Positions 20,260 to 52,305 of a stretch of DNA of 64,000 nt are shown here, one piece after another. The stretch's first letter is position 1. The number at the start of each line of letters is the position of its first letter. The stretch covers positions 1,568,001 through 1,632,000 of the forward strand of contig CP147778.1 of NCBI GenBank assembly GCA_037305845.1, read 5' to 3'. This DNA comes from Candidatus Freyarchaeum deiterrae. GTDB lineage: Archaea; Asgardarchaeota; Jordiarchaeia; Jordiarchaeales; Jordiarchaeaceae. A model generated the notes under the pieces. That model had not been told where the DNA came from. It did no database searches and saw only the letters and a list, made by a program, of their open reading frames with translations. A program made the translations under genes and the position numbers.

Positions 20260-21469
20260 TTACTTTCTTCCAATCCATCCTATCTCTTTTATAGTTTCGC
20301 CGGTTTCAATAACTTCAAAAGCCTTTTTCAATACATCTTTCTGTTCTTGTACGGTGACATCTCTGCCACCTAGACCTGCTATAAATTCCAGCACAGGCGG
20401 CCTCTTATCCTCTGTATATAGCGCAGCTTTAATCTCAGATGCTGATGCACCGCCTTTTCCTGCTGAAAGGTTTCTGTCTATTACTGAAATAGCTTTAACG
20501 CGACTAGCAATTCTGCGTATCTCCTCTTCAGGAAAAGGTCTAAAAGTCCTCAGCTTCACTGATCCTGCTCTGTAGCCTTCCTCTCTTAACTCGTCGACAG
20601 CTACCATAGCTTGGTCAGCAAGAGAACCCATACAGAAAATCACCGCGTCTGCATCTTGACACCGATATTCTTCGACCAAATCACCGTGATATCTTCCAAA
20701 TTTCTTTTTGAAATCAGAGGCAACCTCCACGATTTTTCTTTTAGCGTTTTCATGTGCTAAATGTATAAGATACTTGAACTCGTAAAACCAATCATCAGGG
20801 TTCTGTAGATTTCCATAAGTAATGGGGTTATCTATGTCTATACCTATATGCGTTGGATTATATGGAGGAATGAAAGCGTCAACCTCTTCTTGTTCTGGAA
20901 TCACGACTGGTTGAGAGGTATGACTAATAGTGAATCCCTCATAACAAACCATCATTGGTAGAAGAATCTCTTGATCTTCTGCAATTTTAAATGCTTGTAT
21001 AATTGAATCGAACGCGTCCTGATGATTGGCACAATAAACTTGCATCCAGCCAGTATCTCTTTGAGAAACCGAATCGTTGTGATCCGACCAGATGTTCCAA
21101 GGTGGTCCTAAAGCTCTATTAACTACAGCCATAACAATAGGCAAACGCGAAGACGCAGCCCAGTGAACCATCTCATGCATATAGATTAAACCGTGGGCAG
21201 AAGTAGCGGTAAACGTTCTAACCCCAGCGAGAGAAGCGCCGACGCAAGCTGCTAAAGCAGAATGCTCAGATTCGACACGCACAAATTTGGCATTCAATTC
21301 GCCACCATCAACAAGGTCCGACAACTTCTCTACAATACCAGTCTGCGGCGTTATTATCCCCGAACAAGAATCTTGCTCAGTTTGGATAAGCCGCTATAAC
21401 TGCGGGTCTCGATAAAGCAGCAGCGTAAGCCGCAGCATAATTTCCGGTTGTTATCACAGTTTTTGCCAT
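20260..21469 (-). CDS. porA: 2-oxoacid:ferredoxin oxidoreductase alpha subunit, interrupted by a 28-nt BHB intron; join(21382..21469, 20260..21353), 393 aa
   Basis: ATG at 21469 overlaps the upstream stop. Exon 1 reads MAKTVITTGNYAAAYAAALSRPAVIAAYP; removing 21354-21381 gives ...AAYPITPQTGIVEKLSD, continuing into the 354-aa ORF (ESEHSA, TATS, NRA). Confidence 0.92.
21354..21381 (-). other. BHB mRNA intron in porA (28 nt)
   Basis: GCGGCUU-AUCC-AA^A-CUGAGCAAG(AUU)CUUGUUCGG-GGAU-AA^U-AACGCCGC: 4-bp central helix, two 3-nt bulges, inner and outer helices. Confidence 0.88.
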
Positions 21470-44200: not shown

Positions 44201-44580
44201 ATAAGGAGATTGAAGAAATTGGGATGCGTGTTGCAATGGATTTTGAAATTGCTCAAAGTCGAAGCCCGGAGGATGTTGCCGCTCAGAATTTAGGCTTTGA
44301 CATACGTTCAAAAGCGACAGATGAGAACATTAGGTACATAGAGGTTAAAGCTAGGGCAAGAGAAAGCAAGATAGCACTTACCCCTAATGAATGGTTAATG
44401 GCTCATAGATTGGGAAACGAATACTGGCTTTATGTTGTGGTAAATGCTTCCAAGACACCTGAACTTTACACAATACAAAATCCAGCAGAGAAACTAAAAC
44501 CTGAGGAAGAGACAGAAGTCGTTCGATACATCGTAACAGAGTGGAAAGACGCAGCTAACAAAGAGATAGTAGATGGTTGA
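41218..44580 (+). CDS. SNF2-family helicase with C-terminal DUF3883-like nuclease domain
   Basis: [38 protein letters not shown]; GFDIRS...YIEVK...LTPNEW; start uncertain (41116-41227). Confidence 0.9.
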
Positions 44581-47285
44581 TATGGAGGATAAAAGGCTTA
44601 TAGAAGTTGATTTCCCATTAAAAGAAGTAAGTGAAGAATCAGCGAGGGAGAAGAGCATTCATCGTGGTCATATTTCCGCCCTTCACATTTGGTGGGCTCG
44701 TCGACCACTAGCTGCGTCTAGAGCAACTACTTTTGAAGCTTTAGTTCTTGTGCCAGATAATCATGAAAAGTTAATGAAAAAACTCGAGTTTGTTGCAGAA
44801 CTTTCGAAATGGGAAAACTCTCTGAACCAAAATTTAATAGAAAAGGCTAGAGGAGAGATTAGAGATTTTTTTGGTGAAAGAATACCTAAAGTCTTAGATT
44901 GTTTCGCTGGCGGAGGAGCAATCCCTTTAGAGGCGCTAAGGTTGGGATGCAACACTTATGCGTTGGAATACAACCCTGTTGCTGTTTTGATACTTAAGGC
45001 TATACTCGAATATCCCCAAAAGTTTGGAAAAGGAAAAACTACAGTAAAAAGAGAGCTTCATTCAGCGAACAATCAGCTCATTGACGATGTTAAAAAATGG
45101 GGAAACTGGGTATTGGAGGAAACTAGGAAAGAAATCGGAAAGTTTTATCCACCAGACCCTGACGGAAGCACTCCTGTGGGTTATATATGGGCAAGGACTG
45201 TAAGATGCAATAATCCCTCCTGCGGCACTGAAATCCCTCTTGTAAGGCAAACTTGGCTTGCTAAGAAGAATGTCAAGAAGGTTGCTTACAAGGTTATTTC
45301 TGAAAACAATAAAATTGGGTTTAAAATTAAGGAAGATAATGGAATAGACTTTGACCCAGAAATAGGCACTGTTTCAAGAGCAAAGGTCATTTGCCCTTGT
45401 TGTAGAGGGGGGCTATCAGATAAAGAAGTAAGAAAACAATTTGTTGATAGAAAAGCGGGGCAGATGATGGTTGCAGTCGTGCTTCATCATTCGAAAAGGC
45501 CAGGCAAAATCTACCGGCCCTGTACTGAAAATGATATACACGTTTTCAGAGAAGCCGAGAAATATCTACAGAAGAAGAGAAAAGACCTCTTTGACAAATG
45601 GGGGTTCGATCCTGTGCCAGATGAACCAACACCAGAAGGAAAGGGTAGCGGGGCTGAAAGAGCATTTTCAGTACGTAGCTATGGTCTCGATACCTGGGGT
45701 GATCTTTTCAACTCAAGACAGAAATTAGCGTTAATAACCTTTGTAGAAAAAGTGAGAAATATAAATAAGAGTATAATCGAGAAAGGGTACGAGGAAGAAT
45801 ATGCAAAGGTCGTGGCGAGTTATTTGGCACTGGGAGTCGATAAAGTAGCAGATTATAATAATGTCTTATGTCAGTGGAGAAATAATCTTGAGACTGTTGG
45901 ACATGCCTTCGCAAGGCAAGCGTTACCAATGCTTTGGGATTATGTGGAGGGAAATCCAATAACGGGTACTTCAGGAACATGGTCAGGCGCAATTGAATGG
46001 ATTGGAATGGCAGTCGATGCTTCCGAAAAAGTTTCTTCTTTCTCTGCTACTTTATCTCTATCCTCTGCCACAGATCTTCCATATTCCGACGACTTCTTCG
46101 ACGCAGTAATCACTGATCCACCCTATTACGACAATGTGCCTTATTCTTACCTGTCTGATTTCTTTTACGTTTGGCTCAAAAGGACAATAGGGGATTTATA
46201 CCCTGAATTCTTCTCAACTCCTCTTACACCCAAATCAAAGGAGATCGTGGCTTATTCTCATGGTAAGAGTGGCTTAAGAAGGAAAAAGATCCTTTGAGGG
46301 TATGATTACTCAATCCTTTAAAGAAATCCATAGAGTTTTGAAGTATGATGGTATAGCCGTAATAGTGTTTGCTTACAAATCTACCGAGGCATGGGAAACC
46401 ATCATTAATAGTCTTCTAAAATCAGGTTTGGTACTCACAGCTTCTTGGCCAATTCATACAGAGATGAAGGCAAGGCTTAGAGCTATGGAAAGCGCAGCCT
46501 TAGCTTCTTCTGTCTATATGGTGTGTAGAAAGCGCACGGAAGAAAAGATTGCATATTTTAACGAAATAAAAGAAGAGATTGAAAGTAGAATCAAGGAAAA
46601 ACTTACCCAGTTTTGGCAACAGGGCATAAGCGGTGCGGACTTCTTTGTTAGCGCAATAGGTCCTGCTGTAGAAGTATTTGGAAAATACTCAAAGGTCGAA
46701 AAATTTTCGGGTGAAGAGGTTTCTGTTCAGGAATTGTTAGAATATGTGAGAAAAATTGTGAGTGAATTCGCTTTGGAAAGAGTTTTAAAAAGAGCGGATC
46801 TGGGAGGAATAGACGCTGAAACAAGATTCTACTTGCTGTGGAGATGGACATTTGGCAATGCCAAAGTGCCTTTTGACGACGCAATAAAACTTTCCAGACC
46901 CATGGGCGTTGAGCTTACAAAATTATGGGATGGTGGAGAACTCGTCAGAAAAGAAAAAGGATCCGTCAAAGTCCTTACTTCTCAAGACAGGGCAAAAGAT
47001 CCTTCCTTCTTAAGAAAAACAAAGTTCAAATCCATGATAGATGTTCTTCATTACGTGTTAGTGTTGTGGGAACATGGAGAAAGAGAAAAAGTCAAGGAAA
47101 TCTTGAGTGAGACAGGGTATGCTGGAAACGAGATATTTTGGCAAACTGCTCAAGCCATTTCAGAAATTCTTCCAAAAGGGGATAAAGAAAAGCAATTACT
47201 TCAAGGATTTCTTTACGGTAAAGAAGTTTATGTTAAAGCAGCTAGAGGAAAAACAAGTTTACTTGATTATATGGAGAGTGAATAA
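44573..47285 (+). pseudogene. DUF1156-family adenine DNA methyltransferase with Zn ribbon, frameshifted near 46277
   Basis: [27 protein letters not shown] in the 574-aa part; the C-terminal 327 aa continue in another frame ([14 protein letters not shown]). Confidence 0.8.
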
Positions 47286-50513: not shown

Positions 50514-51332
50514 TTATTTTTTGCTAAGCTGGTATAGTTCATCGAATATTTCGGGTCTAAGGTCTCGTAGTACTGGTGCTGCTATTCTTGATGCTTTTAA
50601 ATCCGAATAGTCGATTGTTGCGGTTACTAGGTCTTCCTCATCGTATTTTGCTTTTATTATTATTGTGCCGTCTGGGCCAACTATGCGGCTTCCTCCCCAG
50701 AAAATTAAACCGTCTTCAACTCCTACTAGGTTCACGTAAGCCAAAAAAACCGTATTTTCCATGGCTCTGGAGGATATAAATGTTTCAAAGTACCCGGTGC
50801 GGGTGGCAGGTGAAGCTGATATACAAACTATTAATTGTGAACCCATGAGCGTGAGCTGGCGTGCGATTTCTGGGAAGTATATGTCGTAGCAAATCATTAA
50901 ACCGATTTTTCCAATTTCGGTTTCCAGTATTTGTGTCTCGTATCCTTGTCTGAAATATCTTTTTTCTTCGAAAACTAAGTGTGTTGGTAGATATTTCTTA
51001 CGGTACTTTCCAATATACCCTTTTGGCCCCACCATTACTGAAGTGTTATATAAGACGCCTTCTCCGGCTTCTTCTACCATTCCGAATACTACATGTATAT
51101 CATTCTTGTTTGCAGTGTTCTCTATTTTTTTCACCGAGGTTCCAGGGATGCTTTCTGCTAGGGAGTAGTATTGGTCTTTGCATGAGTAGCCGGTGAGTAT
51201 TAGTTCTGGGAAGATTACTAGCTGTGCTTTTTGGCTTGCCGCTTCGGCTATTATTTTATTCATTTTTTGCAGATTCTTTTCTTTGTCTTCGAGTGTTGGT
51301 ACCATTTGTGCTAGGGCTAGCTTTACTTTCAT
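50514..51332 (-). CDS. Carbon-nitrogen hydrolase (nitrilase family), possible glutaminase partner of NadE
   Basis: FPEL, YRK, ICYD (E-K-C triad); divergent from nadE. Confidence 0.88.
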   Translation of the reverse strand: MKVKLALAQMVPTLEDKEKNLQKMNKIIAEAASQKAQLVIFPELILTGYSCKDQYYSLAESIPGTSVKKIENTANKNDIHVVFGMVEEAGEGVLYNTSVMVGPKGYIGKYRKKYLPTHLVFEEKRYFRQGYETQILETEIGKIGLMICYDIYFPEIARQLTLMGSQLIVCISASPATRTGYFETFISSRAMENTVFLAYVNLVGVEDGLIFWGGSRIVGPDGTIIIKAKYDEEDLVTATIDYSDLKASRIAAPVLRDLRPEIFDELYQLSKK

Positions 51333-51429
51333 AAGTTCGTCTCCAACAATTTAATATATTTTGGGAATTATAGTAGCTTGATACACTTTTATGTTTATAC
51401 AAGTTATTTCTTATGGAGGCTTTAGTAGA

Positions 51430-52305
51430 ATGAAACTTTCAAAAGAGGTACTTAATATTGAGCCAGAATTTGTTGAGAAGCGTGTTCTTAAATTTATTCG
51501 TGCTCGGGTTACTGATGTGGGTGTTTCAGGAGTGGTTATGGGTCTGAGTGGAGGTATTGATTCTTCGGTTGTTGCTGCTCTTTGTGTAAAAGCTTTGGGC
51601 CCGGAAAGAGTATTAGGGCTGATGTTACCCGAGAAGGATAGCGATCCTAACGATATTAAAGATGCTGTAAAAATAGCTAAGCAGCTTGAAAATCCCTATG
51701 AAGTAGTAGATATAACTTCAATAATTAATGCTTGCCGGGAAACCTATTTAAAGGATGCCTCGGATGCTCCTACAGTAGTGGGAAATGTGAAGGCACGTGT
51801 ACGCATGTTAACACTTTATTGCTATGCAAATAAACTGCATCGCTTGGTCGTTGGTACTGGAAATAAAAGTGAAATATTAATCGGATACAGTTAACGGTTG
51901 ATCACCGTAACTGCCGAAAACTTTACCAAGTACGGCGACGGCGGCTCAGATATATTACCAATAGGTGATCTTTATAAAACCCAAGTTCGTCAACTGGCAG
52001 ATTTCCTAGAAATCCCAAAAGAAATAATTAAGAAAACTCCTACTGCGGGACTTTGGAAGGGTCAAACGGACGAAGCCGAAATTGGTGTTTCATACGATGT
52101 TTTGGACCTGATACTTTATGGTTTAGAACATTGGATGAATGAGTCGGAAATAGCGGAAGAACTCAATGTACCACTTGAAAAAGTGAATAAAATAGTAGAA
52201 ATGTGGAGGAAAAGTGAACATAAAAGAAAAGGCCCGGTTGTCTTTAAATTATCACATAGAACTCCAAGTTTAGACTGGAGGATTCCATTTAACTATTATG
52301 TGTAA
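51430..52305 (+). CDS. nadE: NAD+ synthetase interrupted by a 33-nt BHB/BHL intron; join(51430..51886, 51920..52305), 280 aa
   Basis: GLSGGIDS, NVKARVRM, GTGNKSE; splicing restores IGYFTKYGDGG; PIGDLYKT, PTAGLW.GQTDE, SEHKR. Confidence 0.93.
51887..51919 (+). other. BHB/BHL mRNA intron in nadE (33 nt, contains in-frame TAA)
   Basis: UCGG-AU^A-CAGUUAACGGU(UGAUC)ACCGUAACUG-CCGA-AA^A-CUUU. Confidence 0.88.

Follow-up and report, generated by a model that had tools for sequence, protein, structure and literature searches.

The window analysed here, a stretch of 64,000 nucleotides (nt) from the genome of Candidatus Freyarchaeum deiterrae (contig CP147778.1, positions 1,568,001 to 1,632,000, forward strand), contains nadE, the gene for an ammonia-dependent nicotinamide adenine dinucleotide (NAD+) synthetase. 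The host is an Asgard archaeon (Jordarchaeales/Freyarchaeia) whose genome is a single contig of 3,576,204 bases. Within nadE lies a 33-nt insert at window positions 51887-51919 (+), which is in frame and carries a TAA at 51892-51894, where the frame that opens at ATG 51430 halts. From comparison with relatives and predicted structure we consider it very probable that the insert is an intron of the kind found in archaeal tRNA and cbf5 genes, here within an mRNA and removed by protein enzymes. The features of the interrupted gene, in window positions, are:

51430-51886 (+): nadE exon 1, N-terminal part of the NH3-dependent NAD+ synthetase, matching model NF010587 at 4-149; an alternative ATG lies at 51391
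51881-51884 (+): 5′ strand (UCGG) of the central 4-bp helix, exonic, invariant in 8/8 carriers including two synonymous third positions
51885-51887 (+): 5′ bulge AUA from the fold, invariant, with a predicted cut after 51886
51887-51919 (+): putative bulge-helix-bulge (BHB)-type (HBh′) intron, 33 nt, phase 1, within the Tyr codon of GYFTKYGD, assigned on sequence, fold and conservation
51888-51913 (+): intron hairpin of 10 bp with one bulged A; its loop (51899-51903) is variable, and across 8 sequences 97.5% of the hairpin cells are paired
51892-51894 (+): in-frame TAA within the intron stem, present in all carriers
51914-51917 (+): 3′ strand (CCGA) of the central helix, invariant
51918-51920 (+): 3′ bulge or loop AAA from fold and conservation, with a predicted cut after 51919
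51920-52305 (+): nadE exon 2, matching NF010587 at 150-264, contiguous with exon 1

Deleting the insert leaves an open frame of 280 codons encoding NadE with SEILIGYFTKYGDG, in which the motif IGYFTKYGDG is regained, and the predicted junction of the joined exons is ATCGGATACTTTACC. The two halves match the NAD+ synthase model NF010587 with neither a gap nor an overlap between them. Excisions at offsets 0, +1 and +2 all give an identical product, and the boundaries were set by the archaeal BHB rule, in which each 3-nt bulge is cut behind its second base and which leads to offset 0. That this rule yields boundaries that exactly restore both the frame and the motif was counted in favour of an intron.

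The core of the insert folds into a central helix (UCGG/CCGA), an AUA bulge and a 10-bp inner stem with one bulged A and a 5-nt loop. The folding energy of positions 51881-51921 is -14.5 kcal/mol (z = -3.7, with one of 200 shuffles as stable), and the pair probabilities in the core are 0.94-1.0 in a 240-nt context at 37 °C. A preliminary description of this stretch, made from its letters, had placed a stop-containing intron at exactly these coordinates with exactly this sequence. Its claim that removal restores the NadE motif agrees with the deletion and the model match, and the helix, AUA and AAA bulges and 10-bp stem that it drew are reproduced by folding. [quoted passage not shown]

Two other kinds of element were considered and rejected. 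The insert is only 33 nt long and lacks the ribozyme core of hundreds of bases of a group I or group II self-splicing intron, and an Rfam search over it gave no match at E ≤ 1. A mobile repeat or miniature inverted-repeat transposable element would be expected to recur, and no second copy is found in the genome, where perfect matches elsewhere reach no more than 13 nt; a search of the genome for a source of the intron sequence also found none. A promoter and terminator scan, built on a bacterial consensus, yielded nothing of use.

Conservation, selection and history of the insert

A homologous 33-nt insert is found at the same site in Ca. Jordarchaeum madagascariense, the closest named relative for this nadE, in three Joint Genome Institute (JGI) contigs and in four further assemblies, giving eight lineages in all. 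Every carrier keeps the TAA, the length of 33 nt and the same fold. In the first four lineages compared the intron is identical at 27-33 of its 33 positions, against 42-76% identity at fourfold-degenerate sites. Across the 8 sequences no change occurs in the central helix, 97.5% of the inner helix is paired and variation falls mostly in the loop. A single two-sided change (C-G to U-A) and a one-sided A-to-G wobble in each of two further pairs leave pairing intact.

The ratio of nonsynonymous to synonymous substitution rates (dN/dS) among carriers is 0.09-0.22 for exon 1 and about 0.03-0.15 for exon 2, leaving out the exon-1 value of lineage L251, which is an artefact of a one-codon indel; values in intronless relatives are similar. 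These ratios indicate that both exons are under purifying selection and that the interrupted gene is functional. The identical insert is also present in independent Logan contigs and homologous inserts occur in other species, so that it is not an assembly error. One Logan contig of the host species (L236) has a frameshifted first half of nadE with a 147-aa product, which may be a strain variant or an assembly error.

In a tree built from the exon sequences the earliest branch of the family has the intron, the sister family is without it, and two groups nested within the family are also without it. Topologies in which all carriers form a single clade (p = 0.0002), in which the two intronless groups do so (p = 0.003) or in which either intronless group joins the outgroup (p = 0.008 and 0.015) are rejected by approximately unbiased (AU) tests, these p-values being optimistic because the groups were named after the first tree had been seen. 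One intronless clade retains the exact predicted splice junction (GTCGGAT/ACTTC, the slash marking the junction), with the UCGG strand included, and in the other intronless group the synonymous sites of that strand have drifted. The simplest reading of these sequences would be one gain and at least two exact losses of the nadE intron; alternatively, the intron may have spread by recombination.

Splicing enzymes and introns in other protein genes

The genome encodes two EndA subunits, whose genes lie at genome positions 1920673-1921314 and 1733135-1733752. The alpha subunit aligns with Aeropyrum EndA alpha and has the Tyr/His/Lys triad together with a lysine in the CSL/L1 loop matching K44, a type of loop reported to make relaxed motifs cleavable and to be a conserved feature among Asgard archaea (PMC5829648). 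The second subunit is without the His and is read as the structural beta subunit. Genes for RtcB and archease are also present. Judged from these alignments, the host encodes a two-subunit EndA of the broad-specificity type, plus RtcB. ARAGORN detects only 17 tRNAs in the genome, a number that fits heavily interrupted tRNA genes; in one study of Freyarchaeia, introns are reported in 92-95% of tRNA genes (PMC11291895).

To find inserts by homology alone, free of any motif, the proteome of a sister-family genome (G004) was aligned to the host genome, frame-breaking inserts being counted at 14 nt or longer and expectations being taken from shifted positions. Among 16 frame-breaking inserts, two of which are spurious matches in the 16S gene, there were 8 strict and 10 relaxed BHB fits, against 0.28 and 1.67 expected, while only 3 of 80 in-frame indels fitted a BHB, against 2.16 expected. 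Targeted checks added introns in an HD-domain gene, gatE and cbf5. The host total comes to 13 introns or more, spread over 11 genes that include rtcB, alba and ahcY (with three); the figure is a minimum, since such a comparison overlooks most sites that the host has in common with G004. In the cbf5 gene of the host the intron separates the first base of the catalytic Asp codon from the second, as it does in Crenarchaeota. Similar inserts that shift the frame have lengths of 28, 29, 31, 34, 56 and 191 nt, and one of the other introns lies within the window:

21354-21381 (-): 28-nt BHB insert, picked up in the motif-free comparison and read as an intron, in the gene for the alpha subunit of a 2-oxoacid:ferredoxin oxidoreductase; its removal restores AAYPITPQT, as compared with an uninterrupted homologue

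The reciprocal search in G004 gave 9 strict fits among 18 breaks, two of these fits being tandem duplications, and none among 57 in-frame indels. G004 (L114-L223) has two BHB inserts in one small GTPase gene and others, judged by motif, apparently in EF-2, dnaG and alba. G004 and the host have the alba and gatE sites in common. An in-frame stop is present in each of the eight introns with a length divisible by three, against a chance expectation of 38-51%, and stop-free counterparts with a hairpin were not found. We treat this excess of stops only as a lead, the sample being small and the census favouring broken genes. De novo BHB scans of the genome did not separate the predicted offsets from controls except for a modest excess at 26-35 nt, and a loose scan returned mostly noise. 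Such scans are almost powerless here, and homology-defined inserts were used for that reason.

Some further irregularities were seen in the same comparison. The 16S rRNA gene at genome positions 1804896-1806517 (L011) is 1622 bases long and has inserts relative to G004, and the 23S region at about 1838700-1839500 has short inserts. At genome positions 1737243-1739147 (-) there are five frameshifts of 1-2 bases within 2 kb, relative to G004 open reading frames (ORFs), which could be pseudogenes, local errors or spurious ORFs.

NadE paralogues and neighbouring genes

The preliminary description had proposed that splicing is obligatory unless another nadE exists, and that it could link NAD supply to splicing capacity. 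It had suggested a genome search for a second copy, and had named an intact one as half of what would speak against its reading. The search found an intact glutamine-dependent NAD+ synthase of 560 aa at genome positions 611440-613122, with a score of 594.8 bits where the equivalog cut-off is 479. Splicing would therefore be needed for the product of the intron-bearing nadE, the ammonia-dependent enzyme, but probably not for NAD synthesis overall. The proposed link to NAD supply is left unsupported, given this intact copy and an intron that is not specific to nadE.

An intact glutamine-dependent backup is present in both intron-bearing GTDB genomes, and in the three intronless ones it was either not found or broken, although two genomes set against one clade of three are too few independent cases to interpret. 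One locus (G008:C58:12410-13463) holds a glutamine-dependent nadE in pieces, and the other nadE of that genome is intronless. The host also has a third, divergent NadE-like paralogue at genome positions 294030-294998 (-) (L107), in which SNYDEHGDG replaces GYFTKYGDG and which also has an internal insertion. Two or three copies of this paralogue occur in some genomes of the genus, and its substrate may differ.

A nitrilase-family amidohydrolase gene at window positions 50514-51332 (-) stands head-to-head with nadE in those loci of the genus that reach that far. Its product is similar to the glutaminase domain of glutamine-dependent NadE and might be a source of ammonia. At window positions 30107-50339 a stretch of approximately 20 kb is enclosed by two tRNA-Leu genes that are nearly identical (90% over 116 bp); genes for DUF1156 and DUF499 proteins and a segment rich in GC lie within it. 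In relatives no more than about 350 bases separate archease from the nitrilase gene, and this makes the stretch look like an element integrated at a tRNA. The DUF1156 gene (window 44573-47285) is seemingly split into ORFs of 574 aa and 327 aa that do not share a frame; an A-run lies close by, at about 46280-46290, and this may be a frameshift or a pseudogene.

Proposed splicing, its alternatives and known systems

In the mechanism that we propose, the nadE transcript would fold into a 4-bp helix with two flanking 3-nt A-rich bulges and a 10-bp hairpin closing the intron side. The two-subunit EndA would cleave after the second base of each bulge, and RtcB, probably aided by archease, would ligate the exons and rebuild the Tyr codon of GYFTKYGD. 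Unspliced mRNA would be translated as far as the intron UAA, giving a fragment of 154 aa, presumably without activity. The intron would have entered once in the ancestor of the family, been constrained to stay spliceable and been lost exactly at least twice. As one of a multi-gene set it is most likely a tolerated insertion and not an NAD-specific switch.

Conservation, structure, the selection acting on both exons and the splicing-enzyme genes give good support to the BHB/BHL intron first suggested in the preliminary description, and four observations weigh against it. No exon helix lies immediately beside the bulges, where one of three adjacent pairs forms and the strict hBHBh′ arrangement would have a helix; this absence places the motif in the relaxed HBh′/BHL form. 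Outer exon pairing is moreover no stronger than in synonymous-recoding controls in most relatives, which leaves selection for an extended outer helix unsupported. Covariation alone is not significant, the one two-sided change being reached by 54 of 500 shuffles, and the conservation evidence is the invariance of the intron set against diverged synonymous sites, not covariation. A protein search returned no full-length protein close to the spliced product; the best are 72-75% identical and come from intronless lineages, on contigs that span oppositely oriented genes and look like DNA. Finally, a reverse transcriptase (PF00078), which might have explained exact loss, was sought in the host genome and not found.

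The alternative that survives best is one of purpose only and is compatible with an intron: EndA could cut nadE mainly as regulation, with cleavage without ligation, or conditional splicing, setting the level of the ammonia-dependent enzyme. The very strong conservation of the intron sequence and the retention of the glutamine-dependent backup in both intron-bearing genomes could be taken this way, and such a role has been proposed for the cbf5 intron (PMC2738675). However, the need to remain cleavable suffices to explain the conservation, the backup correlation is as thin as described above, the intron has been lost at least twice and similar introns occur in unrelated genes. We regard a mainly regulatory role as unlikely.

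The remaining alternatives dispense with splicing altogether. In a split gene each half would be translated on its own, with a start codon in the insert serving the second, and the two would then assemble into the enzyme. Gene callers do annotate ORFs of 154 and 135 aa, and there is a TTG three bases past the TAA, with TTG or ATG in some relatives. This is nevertheless very improbable, since three carrier lineages (L249, L250 and L251) have TTA there and no start codon in the insert, and exon 2 is conserved from the junction onward. The break would also fall within GYFTKYG, which is nearly invariant among 150 homologues, and a split gene predicts neither the BHB geometry nor the frame-shifting inserts in other genes. 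Read-through or recoding of the stop, giving an enzyme with an 11-residue insertion, would account for an insert that is always 33 nt and a multiple of three, but it is scarcely credible because the insert varies as RNA, the loop codons changing non-synonymously (I/M/G/T) and the stem third positions staying fixed, and because the counterparts in other genes shift the frame; the neighbouring genes, too, end in TAA. A pseudogene or assembly artefact tolerated thanks to the second nadE, to which the intact glutamine-dependent copies in this and the other intron-bearing GTDB genome and the frameshifted contig L236 might point, is equally hard to credit given an insert that recurs in independent assemblies and species and exon dN/dS values of 0.03-0.22 with dS up to saturation.

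More broadly, we think it likely that Jordarchaeales routinely splice many of their mRNAs by protein catalysis, with at least 13 introns in 11 genes here and at least seven in the sister-family genome, gained and lost gene by gene, and with introns of a length divisible by three carrying stops as if selected against read-through. If so, Asgard archaea would have intron-rich protein genes without a spliceosome, and mRNA splicing, with a dozen introns or more of this kind in housekeeping genes, would be routine in a lineage close to eukaryotes by a chemistry unrelated to the spliceosome. The nadE intron, well sampled and apparently with one gain and at least two exact losses, could serve as a test case for how introns arrive and depart. 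Databases hold the intron-bearing nadE as two fragments, the truncated half even being a cluster representative, so that such genes are probably overlooked or mis-called in inventories of Asgard genes.

In the literature searched, most subscription journals lying outside it, we came across no account of introns in the mRNAs of Asgard archaea, and the only archaeal mRNAs spliced by the tRNA endonuclease were those of cbf5, in the coding sequence, and HVO_1309, in the 5′ untranslated region. The HVO_1309 intron of Haloferax volcanii (PMC7714728; PMC10485636) is likewise a BHB intron in an mRNA cut by EndA, but it interrupts no reading frame and its enzyme is homodimeric. The non-canonical tRNA introns of Freyarchaeia and Atabeyarchaeia (PMC11291895; bioRxiv 10.64898/2026.10.13.758758) share the lineage, the motif and presumably the enzymes, with repeated gains; as far as their accessible parts go these papers concern tRNA introns, and the preprint contains neither "mRNA" nor "cbf5". 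NadE inteins interrupt the same motif directly after GYF, two residues from the intron site, but are in-frame elements of about 370 residues with Hint or LAGLIDADG domains that are removed at the protein level. Intein-like inserts after GYF were seen in the NadE of other organisms (P0019, P0023 and P0126), the motif thus being hit by two unrelated kinds of element.

The closest parallel is the cbf5 pre-mRNA intron of Desulfurococcales and Sulfolobales (PMC2738675). Both introns are short (16-44 nt in cbf5, 33 nt in nadE), without an ORF and of the relaxed BHB form, both split a codon of a conserved motif, both occur in hosts with a two-subunit EndA, and both have a history of gain and exact loss. 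Splicing of cbf5 has been shown experimentally, whereas the nadE intron is known here from sequence, by which it has every feature of the cbf5 intron that can be tested. It differs in lying in another gene and another phylum, and in belonging to a set of 13 introns or more spread over 11 genes where cbf5 is a single case. As far as genome sequences indicate, the insert is an mRNA intron of the cbf5 type, in a gene and a phylum that are both new for this type, and forms part of a multi-gene system.
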